DNA from: a virus
UHGV virus genome: UHGV-0365212
DNA: 13,094 nucleotides
Reading direction: 5' to 3' (one strand)
In this document: piece after piece, positions 1 through 13,094 of the stretch
Numbering within the stretch: position 1 is the first letter of the stretch
Layout: every line of letters begins with the position of its first letter
Program-made: the position numbers and the translations under genes
Notes under the pieces: generated by a model
Databases searched by the model: none
What the model saw: the letters and a program-made list of their open reading frames with translations, nothing else
What the model was told of the DNA's origin: nothing

Positions 1-159
1 ATTCACAGGTTCAAAGTCATGATTAAAGCGGAACATGCTGGCGATACATGTTCTGCCTTTTCGGATGTAGTGAACTTTGTTGTGGGTAGAACGCAGGATT
101 TTGCAGGGAGTGCCGTGGTGGTCGACGTACCAGGTGTTAGGGTAAATCACTCTGAACAT
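1..159 (-). CDS. hypothetical protein, 5' portion only (ORF runs off the window start); lies downstream of exo in the leftward operon
   Basis: ATG at 159-157 (minus) with AAGG about 7 nt upstream; open frame to position 1; translation MFRVIYPNTWYVDHHGTPCKILRSTHNKVHYIRKGRTCIASMFRFNHDFEPVN...; absent from ORF track because it is truncated. No family recognised. Confidence 0.3.
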   Translation of the reverse strand, partial: MFRVIYPNTWYVDHHGTPCKILRSTHNKVHYIRKGRTCIASMFRFNHDFEPVN

Positions 160-249
160 TCTTGACCTTGTGTTGTGCGGATTGATATTCAGTGCTGATA
201 TTCACCTTTATAGCGAACACCTTTACCCGGATATTATCGTGAGGATGCG

Positions 250-930
250 TCATCGCCATTGCTCCCCAAATACAAAACCAATTTCAGCCAGTGCCTCGTC
301 CATTTTTTCGATGAACTCCGGCACCATCTCGTTAAAACTCGCCATGTACTTTTCATCCCGCTCAACCACGACATAATGCAGTCCTTCACGCTTCATACGC
401 GGGTCATAGTTGGCAAAGTACCAGGCATCTTTTTGTGTCACCCACATGCTGTACTGCACCTGGGCCATGTAAGCCGATTTTATGGCCTCGAAACCACCGA
501 GCCGGAACTTCATGAAATCCCGGGAGGTAAACGGGCATTTCAGTTCAAGGCCGTTGCCGTCACTGCATAAACCATCGGGAGAGCAGGCGGTGCGCATACT
601 TTCGTCGCGATAGATGATCGGGGATTCAGTAACATTCACGCCGGAAGTGAACTCAAAGAGGGCTCTGGCGTCGTTCTCGTACTGTTTTCCCCAGGCCAGC
701 GCCTTAGCGTTAACTTCCGGAGCCACACCGGTGCAAACCTCGGCAAGCAGGGTGTGGAAGTAGGACATTTTCATGTCAGGCCACTTCTTTCCGGAGCGGG
801 GTTTTGCTATCACATTGTGAACTTCTGAAGCGGTGATGACGCCGAGCCGTAATTTGTGCCATGCATCATCCCCCTGTTCGACAGCTCTCACGTCGATCCC
901 GGTACGCTGCAGGATAATGTCCGGTGTCAT
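250..930 (-). CDS. exo: lambda exonuclease (Red-alpha, 5'-3' dsDNA exonuclease), 226 aa
   Basis: ORF-track translation [27 protein letters not shown]...GFVFGEQWR matches my recollection of phage lambda Exo almost residue for residue; start codon overlaps bet stop (ATGA), as in lambda. Confidence 0.95.
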
Positions 931-1712
931 GCTGCCACCTTCTGCTCAGTGGCTTTCTGTTTCAGGAATCCAAGAGCTTTCACTGCTTCGGCCTGTGTCA
1001 GTTCTGACGATGCGCGAATGTCGCGGCGAAATATCTGGGAACAGAGCGGCAATAAGTCGTCATCCCATGTTTTATCCAGGGCAATCAGCAGAGTGTTAAT
1101 CTCCTGCATGGTTTCATCGTTAACCGGAGTGATGTCGCGTTCCGGCTGACGTTCTGCAGTGTATGCGGTATTTTCGACAATGCGCTCGGCTTCATCCTTG
1201 TCATAGATACCAGCAAATCCGAAGGCCAGACGGGCACACTGAATCATGGCTTTATGCCGTAACATCCGTTTGGGATGCGACTGCCACGGTCCGGTGATTT
1301 CTCTGCCTTCGCGGGTTTTGAATGGTTCGCGGCGGCATTCATCCATCCACTCGGTAACGCAGATCGGATGATTGCGGTCTTTGCGGTAAATCCGGCATGT
1401 GCAGGATTCGTTGTCCTGTTCAAAGTCCATGCCGTCAAACTGCTGGTTTTCGTTGATGATGCGGGACCAGCCATCAACGCCCACCACCGGAACGATGCCG
1501 TTCTGCTTATCAGGGAAGGCGTAAATTTCTTTCGTCCACGGATTAAGACCGTACTGGTTGGCGACGATCAGCAATGCGATGAACTGCGCATCGCTGGCAT
1601 CACCTTTAAATGCCGTCTGGCGAAGAGTGGTGATCAGTTCCTGTGGGTCGACAGAATCCATGCCGACTCGTTCAGCCAGCTTCCCAGCCAGCGTTGCGAG
1701 TGCTGTACTCAT
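927..1712 (-). CDS. bet: lambda Beta single-strand annealing protein (Red-beta), 261 aa
   Basis: Translation [37 protein letters not shown]...KATEQKVAA matches recalled lambda Bet over its full length; sits between gam and exo on the same strand. Confidence 0.95.
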
Positions 1713-1717
1713 CCGTT

Positions 1718-2014
1718 TTATACCTCTGAATCAATATCAACCTGGTGGTGAGCAATGGTTTCAACCATGTACCGGATGTGTTCCGCCATGCGCTCCTGAA
1801 ACTCAACATCGTCATCAAATGCACGGGTAATGGCTTTTTTGCTGGCCCCGTGGCGTTGCAAATGATCGATGCATAGCGATTCAAACAGGTGCTGGGGCAG
1901 GCCTTTTTCCATGTCGTCTGCCAGTTCTGCCTCTTTCTCTTCACGGGCGATCTGCTGGTAGTGACGCGCCCAGCTCTGAGCCTCAAGACGATCCTGAATG
2001 TAATAAGCGTTCAT
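1718..2014 (-). CDS. gam: lambda Gam, RecBCD inhibitor; only the 98-aa short form (GamS) is encoded because the upstream long-form start is lost at a deletion junction
   Basis: Translation [44 protein letters not shown]...[10 protein letters not shown] matches recalled lambda Gam C-terminal 98 aa; AGGAG Shine-Dalgarno 7 nt upstream of the ATG; lambda-like 5' sequence persists only to about position 2090. Confidence 0.9.
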
Positions 2015-2350
2015 GGCTGAACTCCTGAAAATGGCTGTGAAAATATCGCCCGCGAAATGCCAGGCTGATTAGGAAAACAGGAAAGGGGATTAGTGATTGA
2101 GGCCGTTACCGCGTCCGTCGAGAAAAACTTCCACGAGCAAATCACGGGTATAAGTGCGCTCGATGCCGCGATGCAGATAAAGCCGTCCGCGTAAATTAGC
2201 TGATGCAGTCCAGGTACCGGATACTGAAAAATTACGCCAAAACGCTGACAGTAACAGGCGTATGAAGTCAGAGATAACGACCGGTTGATACCGTTTTATT
2301 GATTTTTGCTGGCAATTGTCATGCTGGTCTGATTTTTGTGGAGAAAGTTG

Positions 2351-2734
2351 ATGCGTGATATTCAGATGGTTCTTGAGCGTTGGGGGGCATGGGCGGCTAA
2401 TAACCATGAGGATGTGACCTGGTCGTCCATTGCTGCCGGTTTTAAGGGATTGCTTCCTTCAAAAGTAAAATCCCGTCCGCAATGCTGTGATGATGACGCG
2501 ATGATCGTTTGCGGGTGCATGGCCCGTCTGAAAAAGAACAACAGCGATTTGCACGATTTATTAGTGGATTATTATGTCGGCGGTATGACATTCATGTCAC
2601 TGGCAAGTAAGCATCGTTGCTCTGATGGTTATATCGGGAAAAAGTTACAGAAGGCTGAGGGAATAATTGAAGGGATGTTAATGGCATTAGATATCCGGTT
2701 AGAGATGGATATCGTTGTTAATAACTCTAATTAA
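2351..2734 (+). CDS. Q: late-gene antiterminator Q, short phage-21/DLP12 QuuD-like type (127 aa)
   Basis: ATG at 2351 preceded by GGAGA with 7-nt spacer (the ORF-track start at 2336 is a TTG); product [26 protein letters not shown]...[16 protein letters not shown] is Cys-rich and resembles the short Q family as I recall it; positioned just upstream of a porin/lysis module as in DLP12-type prophages. Confidence 0.7.
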
Positions 2735-2751
2735 TACGCCAATTATTTACT

Positions 2752-2785
2752 AAAAGTTATTAAAAATGGGGCGTTGAAACGCCCC
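2752..2785 (-). terminator. candidate intrinsic terminator for the porin gene (minus strand)
   Basis: GC-rich hairpin GGGGCG-ttgaaa-CGCCCC at 2768-2785; on the minus strand it is followed by a U-rich tract (AUUUUUAAUAACUUUUA); about 140 nt downstream of the porin stop. Confidence 0.45.
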
Positions 2786-2873
2786 CAAAAATAAAGGGTA
2801 ATATATAACAGAAGGTTTGTATAGTTAGAAGCAAGGTTGTGCTTCTAAAGGAAGTGGCTTGAGGGAGCCACTT

Positions 2874-2915
2874 ATATGTTGGGGAGGCAAAGCCTCCCAC
2901 AACATATCTTTTAGT
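2874..2915 (+). terminator. long imperfect hairpin followed by CUUUU; candidate terminator downstream of Q (tR'-like?)
   Basis: About 15-bp stem ATATGTTGGGGAGGC / GCCTCCC(A)CAACATAT with one bulge and AAA loop, then CTTTTAG on the plus strand. Confidence 0.4.
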
Positions 2916-2922
2916 AATCAAA

Positions 2923-4005
2923 TTAGAACTGGTAAACCATACCTACAGCAACGATATCATCGGTAGCAACGCCAGATGCTTTCGTGAAATCGCTCTTATC
3001 AATCAGGTTGATTTTGTAGTCAACAAAAGTGGACATATTTTTGTTGAAGTAATAGGTTGCACCTACATCAACATATTCAACCAGGTCCTGATCACCCCAA
3101 ACACCCAAGTCTTTTCCTTTAGAATGCAGGTAAGCAACGGATGGACGCAGGCCGAAGTCGAACTGATATTGTGCAACAGCTTCGAAGTTTTGTGCTTTGT
3201 TGGCAATATGGTTATTACCAAAAACAGTCATGTTCTGGGTTTCAGAATAGGTGGTGGCCAGATAGATGTTGTTCGCATCATATTTCAGACCAGCTGCCCA
3301 TACTTCAGCATTTTGACCAGAAGCATTCAGACCGTTGTTACCGTAGATAACCTGATTATTAGTGCGATCAGATTTAGCATAGGTTGCACCCACGCCGAAT
3401 CCTTCATACTCATAAGTAGTTGAGAAACCGAAACCATCGCCATTAGCTTCAGTTACTTCTTTTCGGTCATTTTTGCCCTGATACTGAGCTGCAAAGTTCA
3501 GGCCATCAACCAGACCAAAGAAGTCGTTGTTACGATAAGTTGCAACACCTGTGGTGCGACCAGTCATGAATACATCTGTTTGGGTCCAGGTATCGCCACC
3601 GAATTCTGGCAGAACGTCGGTCCATGCACCAATATCGTATGCTACACCGTAGTTACGGCCATAATCGATGGAGCCGTAGTCACCGAATTTCAGGCCAGCG
3701 AAGGCAAGACGGGTTTTATCTTTGGAGGAACCTTGAGATTCAGCGCGGTTGCCTTTGAATTCATATTCCCACTGACCGAAACCAGTCAGTTGATCGTTGA
3801 TTTGGGTTTCACCTTTGAAGCCAAGACGGGCATAAGTAGTATCACCATCATCTGCATCATTAGAGGAGAAGTAGTGCTTAGCATTAACTTTCCCGTACAG
3901 ATCCAGCTTGTTACTGTCTTTATTATAAATTTCAGCTGCCTGAGCAGACATCGCCATCAGTACTGATGCAGCTACAGCAGAAATTGCCACTGTTAATTTT
4001 TTCAT
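2923..4005 (-). CDS. nmpC: prophage-encoded OmpC/OmpF-family general porin (NmpC/Lc-like), 360 aa with signal peptide
   Basis: Translation starts [30 protein letters not shown] (signal peptide) and ends ...VGMVYQF (C-terminal Phe typical of porin beta-barrels); alternating Tyr/Gly-rich strands; AAGGG RBS; sits between Q and the holin on the opposite strand as nmpC/lc does in DLP12/PA-2-type prophages (from memory). Confidence 0.88.
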
Positions 4006-4434
4006 CGTGAGCCCTTTTTTTTGAACTATTATTAAAAAATGATGTCACTGCGCGATAAATATTCATCTAATCAATGTGATTATTTCAAGATGTAAGTTTT
4101 GGTTTCTCGTTTAATTTGTGAAGTAGATCTCTATTTTTATCTGAACTTTTTTCTATCGAATCCTATTCATGGCTCTTGGCTGAATAAAAATAAATCTATT
4201 AGCCAATTTATATTAATGGCTGTTATTTATAAGCGCTCTATAATTTGAAGGTTCAATTTAAATTGGCTAAAAATAACGCTGGAAATTATTTGTTGGTTAT
4301 TTGTTGAGATTTGCTTATGTATTTGTAGTGGTGTTTTCAATACTCGGTAGCATTCTCGCAAATATCATTTAGTGGTTTACGTACGTAAAAAATTGGTTAT
4401 GCTGTTAAGATTGGTTACTTCGTCACACAGCTTA

Positions 4435-4466
4435 AACCCGCCGTCGAGCGGGTTTTTCCATTTTTT
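4435..4466 (+). terminator. intrinsic terminator-like hairpin about 110 nt upstream of the holin (possible tR'-type element of the late promoter region)
   Basis: AACCCGC-cgtcga-GCGGGTT stem (4435-4454) followed by TTTTT cca TTTTTT. Confidence 0.5.
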
Positions 4467-4578
4467 GAGTCTCGATATTAGCTGATAACCCAATACCTGA
4501 GTTATTCACTGACTCCGAGTCTGTTACGTTTCGTAGTATTCCCTCAATTTACACCCGCTTTGTCTGCGAGGTGGGGTT

Positions 4579-4794
4579 ATGAAATCCATGGATAAGTTAA
4601 CAACGGGTGTCGCCTATGGCACCTCAGCAGGTAGTGCCGGGTACTGGTTTTTACAGCTGCTCGATAAAGTCACGCCCTCACAGTGGGCAGCAATAGGTGT
4701 GCTGGGTAGCCTGGTATTTGGCCTGCTGACGTACCTGACAAACCTTTATTTCAAGATTAAAGAAGATAAGCGCAAGGCTGCGAGAGGTGAATAA
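4579..4794 (+). CDS. S: class II holin, phage-21 S21-type pinholin with dual-start motif (71/68 aa)
   Basis: [26 protein letters not shown]...[13 protein letters not shown]; Met1-Lys2-Ser3-Met4 dual-start arrangement; two predicted TM segments; strong GAGGTGGGG RBS; stop overlaps endolysin start (TAATG). Confidence 0.9.
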
Positions 4795-5291
4795 TGCCTC
4801 CATCATTACGAAAAGCTGTTGCTGCTGCTATTGGTGGCGGGGCTATTGCTATAGCATCTGTGTTAATCACTGGCCCAAGTGGTAACGATGGTCTGGAAGG
4901 TGTGAGACATAATCCTTACAAAGACATAGTTGGTGTATGGACTGTATGTTACGGGCATACAGGAAAAGACATCATTCCCGGTAAAACGTATACCGAAGCA
5001 GAGTGCAAAGCCCTCCTGAATAAAGACCTTGCCACTGTCGCCAGACAAATTAACCGGTACATCAAAGTCGATATACCGGAAACAACGCGCGGCGCTCTTT
5101 ACTCGTTCGTCTACAACGTGGGTGCTGGCAATTTCAGAACATCGACGCTTCTTCGCAAAATAAACCAGGGTGATATTAAAGGCGCATGTGATCAGCTACG
5201 GCGCTGGACATACGCTGGCGGTAATCAATGGAAAGGACTGATGACTCGCCGTGAGATTGAGCGTGAAGTCTGTTTGTGGGGGAAACAATGA
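4794..5291 (+). CDS. R: SAR endolysin (T4-lysozyme-family muramidase with N-terminal signal-arrest-release segment), R21-like, 165 aa
   Basis: N-terminal weakly hydrophobic Gly/Ala-rich segment [20 protein letters not shown], then E-x8-D-x5-T catalytic spacing ([18 protein letters not shown]) as in T4 lysozyme; immediately follows the holin. Confidence 0.9.
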
Positions 5292-5746
5292 GCAGAGTAA
5301 CCGCGATTATCTCCGCTCTGGTTATCTGCATCATCGTCTGCCTGTCATTGGCTGTTAATCATTACCGTGATAACGCAATCGCCTACAAAGAGCAGCGCGA
5401 TAACAAGGCCAGTGAACTGGAGAAGGCGAACGCCACCATCGCTGACATGCGGAAGCGTCAACGTGATGTAGCAGAACTCGACGCAAGATACACAAAGGAG
5501 CTTGCTGATGCTAACGCGACTATCGAAAGTCTCCGTGCTGATGTTTCTGCTGGGCGTAAGCGCCTGCAAGTCGCCGCCACCTGTGCAAAGTCAACGACCG
5601 GAGCCAGCGGCATGGGCGATGGAGAAAGCCCAGGACTTACAGCAGATGCTGAACTCAATTATTACCGTCTCCGAAGTGGAATCGACAAGATAACCGCGCA
5701 GGTTAACTACCTGCAGGAATACATCAGGACGCAATGCCTGAAATAA
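5288..5746 (+). CDS. Rz: i-spanin Rz (inner-membrane spanin subunit), about 152 aa
   Basis: ATG at 5288 overlaps the endolysin stop (ATGA); [38 protein letters not shown]... with N-terminal TM helix and coiled-coil region; closely resembles recalled lambda Rz. The ORF-track start at 5276 is a GTG four codons upstream; I prefer the ATG. Confidence 0.88.
5508..5693 (+). CDS. Rz1: o-spanin Rz1 (outer-membrane lipoprotein) embedded in the +1 frame of Rz, 61 aa
   Basis: AAAGGAG RBS 7 nt upstream of ATG 5508; [20 protein letters not shown] with lipobox-like VSAC, then proline-rich [13 protein letters not shown]; wholly inside Rz in another frame as in lambdoid spanin pairs. Confidence 0.8.
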
Positions 5747-8019: not shown

Positions 8020-8208
8020 GGGCGGCGACCTCGCGGGTTTTCGCTATTTATGAAAATTTTCCGGTTTAAGGTGTTTCCGTTCTTCTTCGTCGTAACTTAA
8101 TGTTTTTATTTAAAATACCCCCTGAAAAGAAAGGAAACGACAGGTGCTGAAAACGGGCTTTTTGGCCTCTGTCGTTTCCTTTCTCTGTTTTTGTCCGTGG
8201 AATGAACA
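8020..8208 (+). other. cos: lambda cohesive-end site: cosN (GGGCGGCGACCT at 8020-8031) followed by the cosB region up to the Nu1 start
   Basis: Sequence ...GACAGGTTACG|GGGCGGCGACCTCGCGGGTTTTCGCTATTTATGAAAATTTTCCGGTTTAAGG... matches the lambda right-end/left-end junction as I recall it, with only scattered substitutions through to the ATG of Nu1. Confidence 0.85.
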
Positions 8209-11145
8209 ATGGAAGTCAACAAAAAGCAGCTGGCTGACATTTTCGGTGCGAGTATCCGTACCATTCAGAACTGGCAGGAGGCTCAGATTGCGTCCATCAG
8301 CCAGAGTGTGGCGCGTTTCTCCTCTGCATCCGGCGTGGAGGTGGACAAGGTCGCTGAAGCCTTCGGGAAGCTGACCACAGAGGGGAATACCAATATCTCC
8401 GGTGTCACGGTGGTGTTCCGGGCCGGTGAGCAGGAGCAGACACCGCCGGAGGGATTTGAATCCTCTGGCTCCGAGACGGTGCTGGGTACGGAAGTGAAAT
8501 ACGACACGCCGATCACCCGGACCATCACGTCGGCAAACATTGACCGTCTGCGTTTTACTTTCGGCGTGCAGGCACTGGTGGAAACCACCTCAAAGGGGGA
8601 CAGGAATCCATCGGAAGTCCGCCTGCTGGTTCAGATACAACGTAACGGTGGCTGGGTGACGGAAAAAGACATCACCATTAAGGGCAAAACCACCTCACAG
8701 TATCTGGCCTCGGTTGTGGTGGATAACCTGCCGCCGCGCCCGTTTAATATCCGGATGCGCAGGATGACGCCGGACAGCACCACAGACCAGCTGCAGAACA
8801 AAACGCTCTGGTCGTCATACACCGAAATTATCGATGTGAAACAGTGCTACCCGAACACGGCACTGGTCGGCGTGCAGGTGGACTCGGAGCAGTTCGGCAG
8901 CCAGCAGGTGAGCCGTAATTATCATCTGCGCGGGCGTATTCTGCAGGTGCCGTCGAATTATAACCCGCAGACGCGGCAATACAGCGGTATCTGGGACGGA
9001 ACGTTTAAACCGGCATACAGCAACAACATGGCCTGGTGTCTGTGGGATATGCTGACCCATCCGCGCTACGGCATGGGGAAACGTCTTGGTGCAGCGGATG
9101 TGGATAAATGGGCGCTGTATGTCATCGGCCAGTACTGCGACCAGTCAGTGCCGGACGGCTTTGGCGGCACGGAACCGCGTATCACCTGTAATGCGTACCT
9201 GACCACACAGCGCAAGGCGTGGGATGTGCTCAGTGATTTCTGCTCGGCGATGCGCTGTATGCCGGTATGGAACGGGCAGACGCTGACGTTCGTGCAGGAC
9301 CGGCCGTCGGATAAGGTGTGGACCTATAACCGCAGTAATGTGGTGATGCCGGATGATGGCGCGCCGTTCCGCTACAGTTTCAGCGCCCTGAAGGACCGCC
9401 ATAATGCCGTTGAGGTGAACTGGATTGACCCGAACAACGGCTGGGAGACGGCGACAGAGCTTGTTGAAGATACGCAGGCCATTGCCCGTTACGGTCGTAA
9501 TGTCACGAAGATGGATGCCTTTGGTTGTACCAGTCGGGGGCAGGCACACCGCGCCGGGCTGTGGCTGATTAAAACGGAACTGCTGGAAACGCAGACCGTG
9601 GACTTCAGCGTGGGTGCTGAAGGGCTTCGCCATGTACCGGGCGATGTCATTGAAATTTGCGATGATGACTATGCCGGTATCAGCATCGGCGGGCGCGTGC
9701 TGGCGGTGAACAGCCAGACCCGGACGCTGACGCTCGACCGTGAAATCACGCTGCCATCTTCCGGCACCACGCTGATAAGCCTGGTTGACGGGCAGGGGAG
9801 TCCGGTCAGCGTGGAGGTCCAGTCCGTCACCGACGGCGTGAAGGTGAAAGTGAGCCGTGTTCCTGACGGCGTTGCAGAATACAGCGTGTGGGGGCTGAAG
9901 CTGCCGACGCTGCGCCAGCGCCTGTTCCGCTGCGTGAGTATCCGTGAGAACGATGACGGCACGTATGCCATCACCGCCGTGCAGCACCTGACTGCCGAAG
10001 TCACCGCAGACAGCGGGGAGTATCAGGTACTGGCCCGCTGGGACACGCCGAAGGTGGTGAAGGGCGTGAGCTTTATGCTTCGCCTGACCGTGGCCGCGGA
10101 TGAAGGCATTGAGCGGCTGGTCAGCACGGCCCGGACGGCGGAAACCACATACCGCTTCACGCAACTGGCGCTGGGGAACTACAGGCTGACAGTCCGGGCA
10201 GTAAATGCCCGGGGACAGCAGGGAGACCCGGCGTCGGTATCGTTCCGGATTGCCGCCCCGGCAGCGCCGTCGCGGATTGAGCTGACACCGGGCTATTTTC
10301 AGATAACCGCCACGCCGCATCTTGCGGTTTATGATCCGACGGTACAGTTTGAGTTCTGGTTCTCGGAAAAGCGGATTGCGGATATCAGGCAGGTTGAAAC
10401 CACAGCCCGCTATCTTGGTACGGCGCTGTACTGGATAGCCGCCAGTATCAATATCAAACCGGGCCATGATTATTACTTTTATATCCGCAGTGTGAACACC
10501 GTTGGCAAATCGGCATTCGTGGAGGCCGTCGGTCGGGCGAGCGATGATGCGGAAGGTTACCTGGATTTTTTCAAAGGCAAGATATTTTCCCTGACATCAG
10601 ACGGAAAGCTGACCGCTAAAAATGCGGATATCAGTGGCAGTGTGAATGCGAACTCAGGGACGCTCAACAATGTCACGATTAATGAGAACTGTCAGATTAA
10701 GGGGAAACTGTCAGCCAACCAGATTGAAGGTGATATTGTCAAAACGGTCAGCAAGTCTTTCCCCCGCACGAACAGTTATGCCAGTGGCACCATCACGGTA
10801 AGAATCAGTGATGATCAGAAATTTGACCGGCAGGTCATGATACCGCCAGTGTTATTCCGCGGTGGTAAGCATGAGAATTTCAACAGTAATAACCAACAGT
10901 CATACTGGTATTCAACCTGCCGGTTAAGAGTGACCCGCAATGGTCAGGAGATTTTTAATCAGTCCACGACGGATGCTCAGGGCGTATTTTCCTCCGTTAT
11001 AGATATGCCTGCCGGACAGGGGACGCTGACACTGACATTCACCGTATCTTCATCAGGAGCGAATAACTGGACACCAACAACCAGTATCAGCGATCTGCTG
11101 GTTGTGGTGATGAAAAAATCCACAGCAGGTATCAGTATCAGCTGA
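8209..11145 (+). CDS. J: in-frame fusion ORF (978 aa): Nu1 residues 1-24, then a ~33-aa segment resembling tape-measure protein H, then tail-tip/host-specificity protein J from about residue 56 to the end; deletion remnant rather than an intact structural gene
   Basis: N-terminus [24 protein letters not shown] equals recalled lambda Nu1; [33 protein letters not shown] matches a motif I recall from lambda gpH; from [26 protein letters not shown] onward the protein tracks lambda J for about 800 residues, with a divergent C-terminal ~230 aa; junctions at about nt 8280 and 8379. Confidence 0.8.
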
Positions 11146-11163
11146 ATTTTATAACCCAGAACG

Positions 11164-11187
11164 GGCGTCAGAAATGACGCCTTTTTT
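11164..11187 (+). terminator. rho-independent terminator between the J remnant and lom
   Basis: GGCGTCA-gaaa-TGACGCC perfect 7-bp stem followed by TTTTTT. Confidence 0.7.
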
Positions 11188-11211
11188 ATTGCAGAAAAGC
11201 GAGAGGTAATT

Positions 11212-11811
11212 ATGCGTAAACTTTATGCCGCCATTTTGTCCGCAGCCATTTGTCTGGCCGTATCCGGTGCGCCTGCATGGGCGTCTGAACATCAGTCCAC
11301 GCTGAGCGCGGGGTATCTTCATGCCCGGACGAACGTTCCCGGCAGTGATGATCTGAACGGGATTAACGTGAAATACCGTTATGAGTTTACGGACACACTG
11401 GGGATGGTGACGTCGTTCAGCTATGCAGGAGACAAGAATCGCCAGCTGACCCGTTACAGCGATACCCGCTGGTATGAAGATTCCGTGCGTAACCGCTGGT
11501 TCAGCGTGATGGCGGGGCCGTCTGTACGCGTGAATGAATGGTTCAGCGCGTATGCGATGGCGGGTGTGGCTTACAGCCGTGTGTCGACTTTTTCCGGGGA
11601 TTATATCCGCGTAACTGACAATAAGGGGAAAACGCACGATGTGCTGACCGGAAGTGATGACGGTCGCCACAGCAACACGTCTCTGGTGTGGGGGGCTGGC
11701 GTGCAGTTTAACCCGACCGAATCCGTGGCCATTGATGTCGCTTATGAAGGCTCCGGCAGTGGTGACTGGCGCACTGACGGGTTCATCGTGGGTGTTGGTT
11801 ATAAATTCTGA
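11212..11811 (+). CDS. lom: Lom, Ail/Lom-family outer-membrane beta-barrel protein (lysogenic conversion), 199 aa
   Basis: Signal peptide MRKLYAAILSAAICLAVSGAPAWA; C-terminal block SVAIDVAYEGSGSGDWRTDGFIVGVGYKF is identical to recalled lambda Lom C-terminus; GAGAGG RBS; located right after J as in lambda. Confidence 0.9.
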   Translation: MRKLYAAILSAAICLAVSGAPAWASEHQSTLSAGYLHARTNVPGSDDLNGINVKYRYEFTDTLGMVTSFSYAGDKNRQLTRYSDTRWYEDSVRNRWFSVMAGPSVRVNEWFSAYAMAGVAYSRVSTFSGDYIRVTDNKGKTHDVLTGSDDGRHSNTSLVWGAGVQFNPTESVAIDVAYEGSGSGDWRTDGFIVGVGYKF

Positions 11812-11837
11812 TTAGCCAGGTAACACAGTGTTATGAC

Positions 11838-11864
11838 AGCCCGCCGGTTCAGGCGGGCTTTTTT
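11838..11864 (+). terminator. rho-independent terminator after lom
   Basis: AGCCCGCC-ggttca-GGCGGGCT 8-bp stem followed by TTTTTT. Confidence 0.75.
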
Positions 11865-11875
11865 GTGGGGTGAAT

Positions 11876-13094
11876 ATGGCAGTAAAGATTTCAGGTGTAC
11901 TGAAAGACGGCACAGGAAAACCGGTACAGAACTGCACAATCCAGCTGAAAGCAAAACGTAACAGTACCACGGTGGTGGTAAACACGCTGGCCTCAGAAAA
12001 TCCGGATGAAGCCGGGCGTTACAGCATGGACGTTGAGTACGGTCAGTACAGCGTTATTCTGTTGGTGGAAGGATTCCCGCCGTCACATGCCGGGACCATC
12101 ACCGTGTATGAAGATTCTCAACCCGGTACGCTGAATGATTTTCTCGGTGCCATGACGGAGGATGATGCCCGTCCGGAGGCTCTGCGCCGTTTTGAACTGA
12201 TGGTGGAAGAGGTGGTGCGTAACGCGTCCGCGGTGGCACAGAACACGGCAGCCGCGAAGAAGCCAGCCGGCGATGCCGGCACATCTGCCCGTGAGGCGGC
12301 AACCCATGCGACTGATGCTGCAGGCTCAGCACGCGCAGCCAGCACGTCAGCAGGACAGGCCGCGTCGTCGGCTCAGTCAGCGTCTTCCAGCGCAGGAACG
12401 GCATCAACAAAGGCCACTGAAGCGGAAAAAAGTGCTGCCGCTGCAGAGTCCTCAAAAAGCGCGGCGGCCACCAGTGCCGGTGCGGCGAAAAAGTCAGAAA
12501 CGAATGCGGCAGCGTCACAACAATCAGCAGCCACTTCTGCATCCACCGCGACCACGAAAGCGTCAGAAGCTGCCACCTCAGCCCGGGATGCGGCGGCCTC
12601 AAAAGAGGCAGCGAAATCATCAGAAACGAACGCATCCTCGAGCGCCAGTAGCGCAGCTTCCTCGGCAACGGCGGCAGGAAATTCCGCGAAGGCGGCAAAA
12701 ACGTCCGAGACGAACGCCAGGTCTTCTGAGACGGCAGCGGGACAGAGCGCCTCAGCTGCGGCAGGCTCAAAAACAGCGGCTGCGTCGTCTGCCAGTGCCG
12801 CGTCAACAAGTGCCGGGCAGGCCTCAGCCAGTGCCACCGCCGCCGGAAAATCGGCAGAAAGTGCCGCATCGTCTGCTTCAACAGCCACAACGAAGGCTGG
12901 CGAAGCCACTGAACAGGCCAGCGCAGCAGCGAGGTCAGCTTCCGCAGCGAAGACATCCGAAACGAACGCGAAAGCGTCGGAAACCAGCGCAGAATCCTCA
13001 AAAACGGCTGCCGCATCGTCCGCCAGTTCGGCGGCGTCATCGGCCTCATCGGCGTCTGCTTCAAAAGATGAGGCGACCAGACAGGCATCAGCAG
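11876..13094 (+). CDS. stf: side tail fibre protein Stf, 5' portion (continues past the window end); contains a long Ala/Ser/Thr-rich low-complexity repeat region
   Basis: ATG 11876; MAVKISGVLKDGTGKPVQNCTIQLKAKRNSTTVVVNTLASENPDEAGRYSMDVEYGQYSVILLVEGFPPSHAGTITVYEDSQPGTLNDF... matches recalled lambda Stf N-terminus; open to position 13094 with no stop; missing from the ORF track because it is truncated. Confidence 0.85.
   Translation, partial: MAVKISGVLKDGTGKPVQNCTIQLKAKRNSTTVVVNTLASENPDEAGRYSMDVEYGQYSVILLVEGFPPSHAGTITVYEDSQPGTLNDFLGAMTEDDARPEALRRFELMVEEVVRNASAVAQNTAAAKKPAGDAGTSAREAATHATDAAGSARAASTSAGQAASSAQSASSSAGTASTKATEAEKSAAAAESSKSAAATSAGAAKKSETNAAASQQSAATSASTATTKASEAATSARDAAASKEAAKSSETNASSSASSAASSATAAGNSAKAAKTSETNARSSETAAGQSASAAAGSKTAAASSASAASTSAGQASASATAAGKSAESAASSASTATTKAGEATEQASAAARSASAAKTSETNAKASETSAESSKTAAASSASSAASSASSASASKDEATRQASA

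Follow-up and report, generated by a model that had tools for sequence, protein, structure and literature searches.

The tip attachment protein or central tail fibre gpJ of phage lambda (NP_040600; PDB 8IYK, 8XCG, 8XCI and 8XCJ) carries a receptor-binding domain (RBD) that binds LamB. The roles of the gpJ domains and the limits of the shaft and the central straight fibre have been described; helical shaft and central fibre parts connect the RBD to the hub and pass on the receptor signal (PMC11101478). A peptide of the J central fibre (residues 902-933, F924) is the trigger of HepS-type abortive-infection nucleases (PMC13043305). The A8 gpJ chimera allows DNA delivery via OmpC in place of LamB (Brodel et al., Nature 2024), and this use of OmpC was shown for the full-length chimera only (PMC11338833). 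The native receptor of phage 21 is reported to be LamB, and the use of OmpC and OmpF is easily gained (PMC11336670). J sequences also occur as relics: ECB_00512, found in the DLP12 prophage of E. coli B REL606, is a documented J donor: with relic DNA in place of nucleotides 1545-2796 of lambda J, the phage doubled in fitness (Borin et al., bioRxiv 10.1101/2020.11.02.365361).

We analysed the open reading frame at positions 8209-11145 (+) of a 13,094-nt stretch of DNA (virus genome UHGV-0365212), referred to as the window. Nucleotide BLAST and protein alignments were carried out against J from lambda (NC_001416), phage 2H10, phage 21 and the intact J of the DLP12 prophage of E. coli LWY6. The ORF was found to be a chimera of 978 codons starting at the Nu1 ATG and made of Nu1 codons 1-24, H codons 199-232 and J from codon 56 on, with all joins in frame (Table 1). 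Pfam and protein alignment assigned the first 57 residues of the product to Nu1 and H, not J; PF07471 matched residues 1-29, the N-terminus was identical to lambda Nu1, and the DNA match to LWY6 nohD stopped at 8279. The H fragment was 100% identical to lambda 11136-11239, overlapped the neighbouring segment by 2 nt at both ends and encoded H residues 200-232. J residues 1-55 were missing, leaving the N-terminal hub incomplete. Segment A of J (PF24801 and PF13550) was 100% identical to LWY6 J (L003 9283-10889) and 96% identical to lambda at the nucleotide level, and segment B (PF24421 and PF24489) had one mismatch to LWY6 J. J 56-587 and 620-822 were approximately 97-98% identical to lambda gpJ, and the shared Pfam domains came in equal order. 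Unlike lambda gpJ, the product lacked J 1-55, 588-619 and 823-946 and had a Nu1-H leader instead.

Table 1 Features of the chimeric ORF and its surroundings (positions in the window).
Feature	Position	Strand	Remarks
cosN, lambda-type (GGGCGGCGACCT)	8020..8031	+	exact 12-nt match; 189 nt upstream of ORF start
Nu1 (terminase small subunit) ATG and codons 1-24	8209..8279	+	supplies the ribosome-binding site and start codon of the chimera
H (tape-measure gene) fragment, codons 199-232, native frame	8278..8381	+	104 nt
J segment A, J codons 56-591, hub domains (FNIII-A, Phage-tail_3)	8380..9986	+	BLAST and Pfam
Deletion 1 junction (96 nt, 32 aa, J 588-619)	9974..9986	+	overlapping BLAST segments, junction sequences
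J segment B, J codons 624-822: Ig_J/FNIII-1, Ig_J_second/FNIII-2, start of alpha-helical shaft	9987..10584	+	BLAST and Pfam
Deletion 2 junction (372 nt, 124 aa, J 823-946)	10583..10585	+	microhomology TA, 2 nt; product residue 792/793
J segment C, J codons 947-1132 and stop: lower central fibre and complete RBD	10585..11145	+	OmpC-type A8/2H10 allele, by sequence
Terminator-like hairpin and T-run, directly after stop codon	11163..11182	+	predicted; consensus scan only
lom (Ail/Lom outer-membrane protein, 199 aa), intact downstream neighbour	11212..11811	+	PF06316; annotated Lom in 2H10 and LWY6
stf (side tail fibre), 5' part, runs off window	11876..13094	+	called gene in L004 and L005; MAVKISG... 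start

An earlier note on this DNA, made without database searches, had proposed that J carried in-frame internal deletions and a divergent end, and this was borne out almost to the residue. Compared with the intact J of lambda, 2H10 and LWY6, the ORF lacked 32 aa (J 588-619, 96 nt) and 124 aa (J 823-946, 372 nt), both deletions preserved the frame, and alignment with lambda J confirmed both gaps, with no gap-free collinearity. The small gap anticipated at AITAVQH/LTAEV corresponded to the 32 residues, lost between two direct repeats that encode AVQH (GTGCAGCA, exact at 9979-9986, 12/13 nt overall). The lambda block from DFFKGKI to FSLT(P/S) was indeed absent; its size was exactly 124 aa, not the approximately 130 aa estimated. 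Deletion 1 took out the linker between hub and FNIII-1 and cut into the start of the first Ig-like domain, so that the Ig_J profile was matched from position 8, as compared with position 1 in intact J. Deletion 2 took out shaft residues 823-861 and the central straight fibre from about 862 to 946, including the whole HepS trigger peptide with F924. PF09327 (Phage_Tail_Tip), detected in lambda and LWY6 J, was absent from the product. Among the best 120 protein-search matches, this domain was missing only from the 978-aa protein and from a 936-aa version of it called from an alternative start, and none of them was an intermediate in which the Nu1-H-J fusion lacked one or both internal deletions (expected sizes 1134, 1102 or 1010 aa).

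In contrast to the deleted shaft and fibre, the Ig-like RBD was complete. PF12421 matched residues 854-978 (nt 10768-11142, E = 3.8e-36), and these last 125 aa did not differ from 2H10 or LWY6 (100% identity), with identity falling to 81% for phage 21 and to 42% for lambda. Nucleotide similarity to lambda ended at 10692. The divergence from lambda noticed earlier was therefore real; it was shorter than the roughly 230 residues proposed, NVTINENC to the end amounting to 158 aa. LWY6 J, which is the same as the window in the RBD, showed zero mismatches to chain J of "A8 gpJ 713" (PDB 9wca, A8 gpJ alone) from residue 952 to the C-terminus, and A8 gpJ has also been solved together with OmpC chains (PDB 9wcb). 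The published A8 DNA (supplement of PMC11338833) matched window 10585-11145, OCR noise notwithstanding. By sequence identity, the C-terminal domain is an intact copy of the widespread, predicted OmpC-binding A8/2H10-type allele, not the LamB-binding lambda allele, which supports the previous suggestion of a different specificity allele. Phage 21, a LamB user with 81% identity in the RBD, had been considered as a guide to the receptor; it was dropped after the 100% identity to A8 gpJ was found, the use of OmpC by the latter being documented by the Nature 2024 paper and 9wcb. The phage 21 J (OL657228) belongs to the same RBD sequence family and shares a 10-residue C-terminal motif, but 19% of its RBD residues are different, and its shaft and fibre are longer, for a total of 1160 aa. 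The OmpC-type allele was the best match at ≥95% identity in approximately 1,500 of the 5,426 complete E. coli genomes and was also found in many Stx/lambdoid phages. The divergent J end is thus nothing unusual: the allele is common, and both its structure and its receptor, OmpC, have been published.

The genes surrounding the ORF identified the locus as DLP12. The called genes were, in order, int, YqaJ, RecT, Gam, Q, porin, holin, lysozyme, Rz, the chimeric ORF, lom and stf; the order quuD - porin (nmpC) - essD - rrrD - rzpD ... ylcI - cos/Nu1 (nohD) is that of DLP12, and the corresponding genes of LWY6 are annotated as quuD/essD/rrrD/appY. DNA identity between the window and the annotated LWY6 DLP12 was 93-99%, and the stf part was 100% identical to the stf of M37H and LWY6. 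The flanks of the prophage lie outside the window, and the integration site was read from related DNA: isolate contigs containing the window carry an integrase, and closed genomes with 100% identical shared DNA have the order fimZ - tRNA-Arg (argU) - intD ... appY - ompT. By co-linearity of REL606 and lambda, lambda nt 1 falls at window 8020, and the ORF starts where the late genes begin with Nu1; both cos and an intact gene for the antiterminator Q lie upstream of it. Ahead of J, late-operon sequence was limited to cos plus 71 nt from Nu1 and 104 nt from H, in place of an H, M, L, K, I tail cluster; no V, G, T, M, L, K, I or other tail gene was found in the window or the 54-kb isolate contigs.

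Two other DLP12 prophages were compared with the window. In LWY6 (NZ_CP072204), the prophage and flanking genes are the same, and identity across the DNA of J, lom and stf is 99.7-100%; unlike the window, LWY6 keeps a partial L followed by K, I and the full 1132-aa J, and there Nu1 has L as its partner, with the join at another point. ECB_00512 occupies the same locus, after cos-Nu1 and before stf and appY, and is likewise an N-terminally truncated J left after deletion of head and tail genes. It differs in that it arose from an independent deletion joining lambda nt 699 to J nt 631, out of frame with Nu1, keeps both the 32-aa and the 124-aa segments, and has neither the H scrap nor lom.

The window comes from a metagenome assembled from short reads (contig ERZ27281633 k141_1353), and J-like places are frequent in E. 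coli (median of 5 per genome), conditions under which the deletions and fusions could have been assembly artefacts, for instance chimeric joins between co-resident lambdoid prophages. This explanation is scarcely credible and was refuted by independent assemblies. In all, 8 independently assembled contigs encoded the exact protein (NCBI isolates, of which three assemblies carried the identical ORF, as well as Logan and ENA), five of these contigs were read and showed 0-1 nt differences, and a 54.7-kb isolate contig was 100% identical to the window across 13,052 nt. The Nu1-H-J join was also present, with further loss, in 10 of the 5,426 complete E. coli genomes; this M37H-type derivative has lost lom and the RBD and contains a join between J217 and Stf93. 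A long query found the full window structure in none of these 5,426 genomes; 81-nt probes spanning the junctions did not discriminate among complete genomes, since hits in two pieces on intact J ranked as high as hits in one piece or higher. Neither internal junction was found in 2.9 million IMG/VR viral contigs, in which the intact boundary used as a positive control was detected in at least 120 contigs, nor in the phage records among the best matches, all of which had full-length J. The structure is real but rare.

Taken at its strongest, the earlier note's proposal would make the ORF a working J of reduced length, belonging to a viable phage whose host range has changed. In favour of this, functional phages, 2H10 among them, and the A8 chimera have this very RBD, which is intact here. 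However, A8/2H10-type J proteins, including those of many Stx/lambdoid phages, are full-length (1132 aa), have an intact shaft and fibre and work in virions, whereas the product described here is a truncated chimera with a Nu1-H leader: the shaft and central fibre linking the RBD to the hub are largely gone, all other head and tail genes are absent, and none of the 2.9 million viral contigs or best-match phage records contained either junction. We regard a functional shortened J as highly improbable, and the gene content already contradicts it. Judging from the structural papers and the gene content, the product cannot act as a tail tip, because the J N-terminus, the linker, most of the shaft and central fibre and the partner tail genes are missing.

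We consider it probable that the ORF is a decay product of the DLP12 late operon in E. coli in which the OmpC-type RBD has been left intact. The lambda-like morphogenesis region (Nu1 ... H ... J-lom-stf) would have shrunk through deletions whose ends shared short homology or none. The 104-nt H scrap would have been joined to Nu1 codon 24 on one side and to J codon 56 on the other; within J, 96 nt would have been lost between the AVQH-coding repeats and 372 nt at the 2-nt microhomology. Every join would have been in frame by chance, giving rise to the 978-codon ORF. The J DNA differs from the intact LWY6 copy by 1 mismatch in 2,766 nt, so that the openness of the ORF needs no purifying selection; it appears to be open through the recency of the deletions, not through conservation. 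The proposal of the earlier note that a receptor-recognition gene had been kept open was therefore not upheld, given this near-identity, the absence of the internal junctions from the viral contigs and a Nu1-H-J chimera without J 1-55, the linker, most of the shaft and fibre, or any partner tail gene. The sole plausible role of the relic would be passive, as a stock of J, lom and stf for infecting lambdoid phages via homologous recombination. It is J-homologous DNA in a defective prophage, and for most of its length the ORF has 92-97% nucleotide identity with J from, among others, lambda, phage 21 and 2H10. We infer this donor role by analogy with ECB_00512 only. Deletion 2 lies only 108 nt upstream of the end of similarity to lambda, which would limit crossovers with lambda itself. 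Receptor masking by an expressed RBD was judged unlikely: as read from the sequence, the N-terminus has no signal-peptide-like hydrophobic stretch, so the product would remain cytoplasmic and the RBD could not reach OmpC at the cell surface.

The in-frame state of every junction weakly hints at selection, and is the only such hint. All four illegitimate junctions of the lineage (Nu1/H, H/J, J822/J947 and, in the M37H-type derivative, J217/Stf93) are in frame. The chance of this outcome is (1/3)^4 = 0.012, or 0.037 if the Nu1/H/J double join is counted as one event, and an out-of-frame join would end translation within 1-38 codons. This leaves room for selection on translatability: the chimeric ORF may have been kept translatable either for a new use of the protein or to protect transcription of lom, stf and tfa from polarity, and the 124-aa deletion may have been favoured in either case, since loss of the HepS-triggering peptide (902-933, F924) would make expression harmless. 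Consistent with this explanation, one of the four junctions comes from an independently ascertained derivative, deletion 2 spans the trigger peptide described in PMC13043305, and the Nu1 ribosome-binding site and ATG are retained downstream of the intact Q gene and cos. On the other hand, the independent J relic of REL606 has an out-of-frame Nu1/J join, indicating that in-frame joins are not a rule at this locus, and a frameshifting deletion would abolish the HepS trigger equally. The form is rare, as seen above, and there is no divergence from which purifying selection could show; the RBD, for want of a signal-peptide-like N-terminus, is cut off from surface OmpC, and selection cannot have acted on lom or the RBD, both of which the derivative has lost. 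Selection on translatability is thus an unlikely alternative to recent decay. More doubtful still is its fullest form, in which the run of frame-preserving deletions (Nu1/H, H/J, the 124-aa deletion in J and later J/Stf) would be non-random, a single long ORF translated from the Nu1 start being beneficial to the cell or the prophage and loss of the central-fibre segment being favoured by stripping the peptide that triggers HepS-like anticodon nucleases. If true, the relic would exemplify how an abortive-infection sensor can exert pressure that remodels a structural phage gene. Both the in-frame bias and the removal of the HepS trigger peptide could be tested cheaply at scale.

As a probable product of decay, the ORF represents one further stage in the well-known erosion of DLP12 and matters little in itself. 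It does provide a clean and datable deletion series, from the intact LWY6 type through the window type to the M37H type, in which point mutations are all but absent and which shows the speed and the junction types of the collapse of a prophage late operon. By analogy with ECB_00512, such relics may store an OmpC-type tip, lom and stf in the chromosome, and incoming LamB-type lambdoid phages could recombine them in. A stored OmpC-type tip would be relevant to host-range shifts and to phage "training".

The window is the metagenome contig ENA ERZ27281633 k141_1353 (13,094 nt), and an E. coli isolate carries a 54.7-kb contig that matched it at 100% identity across 13,052 nt. The genes called in it encode a YqaJ exonuclease, RecT, Gam, the Q antiterminator, a porin on the opposite strand, a holin, a lysozyme and Rz, followed by a GIY-YIG protein, a DUF1398 protein, ylcI, the ORF analysed here (the relic), lom and the start of stf. 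This order matched the annotation of E. coli LWY6 (quuD, porin, essD, rrrD ... appY; 93-100% DNA identity), and closed genomes whose common DNA was 100% identical to the window carried the flanks fimZ, tRNA-Arg, intD ... appY, ompT. Based on this gene order and these flanks, we identified the window as the DLP12 cryptic prophage. Within region 250-2734, the recombination module lies about 340 nt from the Q gene, indicating that the immunity, replication and nin regions have also been deleted. The porin gene, whose nearest solved relatives are OmpK37 and OmpC, differs from its REL606 counterpart, which is broken by IS1. The position of cosN places the ORF exactly at the start of the late operon; a helper lambdoid terminase could in principle cut or package the relic region via this site.

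Coordinates of the features analysed (window positions unless another sequence is named)
Feature	Position	Strand	Description
YqaJ exonuclease	250-930	-	recombination module
RecT	927-1712	-	recombination module
Gam	1718-2014	-	recombination module
Q antiterminator gene	2351-2734		
DLP12 porin gene, nmpC-like	2923-4005	-	360 aa, uninterrupted
cosN, lambda-type, intact	8020-8031		GGGCGGCGACCT; lambda-like flanks; 189 nt upstream of Nu1' start
Nu1-H-J ORF (relic)	8209-11145	+	978 aa
H scrap	8278-8381		104 nt, 100% identical to lambda 11136-11239
Antisense ORF inside J	9145-10467	-	440 codons
Deletion 1 junction	9974-9986		96 nt = 32 aa lost (J 588-619)
Deletion 2 junction	10583/10585		372 nt = 124 aa lost (J 823-946)
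Nu1-H-J(56-217)-Stf(93-end) ORF	L012 5970-8492 (M37H)		840 aa; also in L011 and L013; abuts tfa
ECB_00512	L014 11307-14658 (REL606)		J relic

The ORF opens with the N-terminus of Nu1, the terminase small subunit (residues 1-24; Pfam PF07471), whose sequence is the same as in lambda, and continues with H, the tape-measure gene, from which codons 199-232 appear in their native frame (residues 24-57). The part encoding the tail-tip protein J starts only from J codon 56. From Nu1 codon 25 to J codon 55 only the H scrap survives; the stretch lost once carried the genes for the large terminase subunit and the head, together with tail genes Z, U, V, G, T, M, L, K and I. Identity to lambda is complete in the H scrap but about 96% in the J DNA next to it; this contrast is a small sign of mosaic ancestry in the lost tail region.

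Alignment of the ORF with J of lambda, phage 2H10, phage 21 and the intact LWY6 DLP12 showed that two in-frame gaps in the J body, described in the earlier note, are real and that its account of lambda J was accurate. Deletion 1 is flanked by two AVQH-coding repeat copies (GTGCAGCA exact; 12/13 nt). Deletion 2 has a microhomology of just 2 nt (TA) and fuses ...DFFKGKI with FSLTSDGK... Deletion 1 strips the linker and the initial residues of the first Ig-like domain (FNIII-1), the Ig_J profile match beginning at position 8, and deletion 2 strips most of the fibre together with shaft residues 823-861. The ORF product lacked Pfam PF09327, a domain that lambda J and LWY6 J both have. In hub opening, the receptor-binding signal travels up the fibre and shaft (PMC11101478). 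From domain roles and gene content, we infer that the product would be unable to function as a tail tip, owing to both deletions, the 55 missing N-terminal J residues and the lack of encoded partner tail proteins.

Nucleotide similarity to lambda stops at 10692. Identity of the last 125 aa was 42% with lambda, 100% with both phage 2H10 and the LWY6 prophage, and 81% with phage 21, whose native receptor is LamB and for which one mutation suffices for OmpC use (PMC11336670). The C-terminal divergence from lambda described in that note was confirmed, but it covers 158 aa (from NVTINENC) rather than about 230. A search of solved structures returned "A8 gpJ 713" (PDB 9wca/9wcb) as a better match than lambda, with zero mismatches from residue 952 to the C-terminus of LWY6 J, which is identical to the window here; 9wcb additionally holds three outer membrane porin C chains. 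"A8" is a chimera described by Brodel et al. (Nature 2024), in which lambda gpJ was fused to the C-terminal portion of the gpJ of a natural E. coli phage (PMC11338833). It delivers DNA into lamB-deleted cells via OmpC and works on most of 23 OmpC variants (PMC11338833). The A8 DNA in the supplement of that paper and window 10585-11145 matched at 96%, with OCR losses accounting for the gaps. Judged by this identity to A8 gpJ, the receptor-binding domain (RBD) is a known, already characterised OmpC-binding domain. Its allele is common. Of 5,426 complete E. coli genomes, about 1,500 had a best match of at least 95% identity (925 at ≥99%, 583 at 95-99%), and the allele also occurs in many phage records, among them those of Stx1a- and Stx2a-converting phages, 2H10, Turner, Chlobot, YYZ-2008 and CP-1639. 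The suggestion of a different specificity allele was thus correct, the receptor being OmpC by identity to the A8/2H10 RBD.

The same note held that this end had been "kept open". Across its three J segments the ORF shows 1 difference in 2,766 nt from intact LWY6 J, and five independent contigs with the ORF differ among themselves by 0-1 nt. The ORF is so young that stop codons have had no time to appear, which accounts for the open state and argues against conservation of the ORF. The exact protein was found on 8 contigs. The whole structure had no match in the closed E. coli genomes searched, and neither internal junction was found in 2.9 million viral contigs, where the intact boundary occurred in at least 120. 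No intermediates appeared among the best 120 matches listed in a large protein search; among these, PF09327 was missing only from the 978-aa protein and from a 936-aa call that starts the same sequence at an alternative codon. In that search, several E. coli/Shigella "J" proteins of 1295-1512 aa (P0001-P0007) outscored normal J (1132-1160 aa), a sign that J may be internally duplicated or fused in other prophages. The antisense ORF lies in a part of J with 58-62% G+C and is most likely a composition by-product and no gene. The ORF is a chimeric, deletion-scarred, pseudogene-like sequence in a cryptic prophage, and its allele is common and already characterised; the note's interpretation had missed both points and was therefore right in part.

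The identical Nu1-H-J join was present in ten closed E. coli genomes (M37H, BE2-5, FG31-1 and others). The three that were read (L011, L012 and L013) contain a further-deleted derivative, 100% identical in the DNA in common. It lacks window 145-5520, the exo-to-lysis region, and 8866-12152, so that J codon 217 is joined in frame to stf codon 93 and both lom and the J RBD are lost; PGAP annotated the resulting M37H ORF as intact. When the count was restricted to joins with at most 2 nt of microhomology, the frame was preserved at all four (Nu1/H, H/J, J822/J947 and J217/Stf93); deletion 1 is in frame of necessity, as both repeat copies encode the same peptide. An out-of-frame join at these sites would have led to a stop within 1-38 codons. 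Four in-frame joins would arise by chance with a probability of 0.012; treating the Nu1/H/J double join as one event raises this to 0.037. Against a general rule stands the J relic of E. coli B REL606, of independent origin but at the same locus: there lambda nt 699 meets J nt 631 out of frame, and Nu1 runs through 20 junk codons to a stop. HepS, the abortive-infection nuclease of Gifsy-1, takes its activating signal from a 32-residue peptide of the J central fibre (residues 902-933, key residue F924; PMC13043305), and this peptide falls inside deletion 2. If a cell possessing a HepS-like sensor expressed the relic, deletion 2 would spare it a self-toxic trigger. Because a deletion that shifted the frame would also remove the trigger, trigger loss does not explain the frame. 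The in-frame bias is unexplained and most likely due to chance.

Borin et al. reported that lambda J nt 1545-2796 was swapped for sequence from ECB_00512, the J relic of a defunct REL606 prophage, and that fitness doubled on hard-to-infect hosts. ECB_00512 occupies the same DLP12 position as the window relic but arose by an independent deletion; its 948-codon J frame is still open despite the out-of-frame Nu1 join. In the window relic, lambda would find just 108 nt of upstream homology beside the tip, because deletion 2 lies directly before it. Overall, the relic is best regarded as inert except as raw material for recombination, offering infecting lambdoid phages a J body (92-97% identical), an OmpC-type tip, lom and stf.
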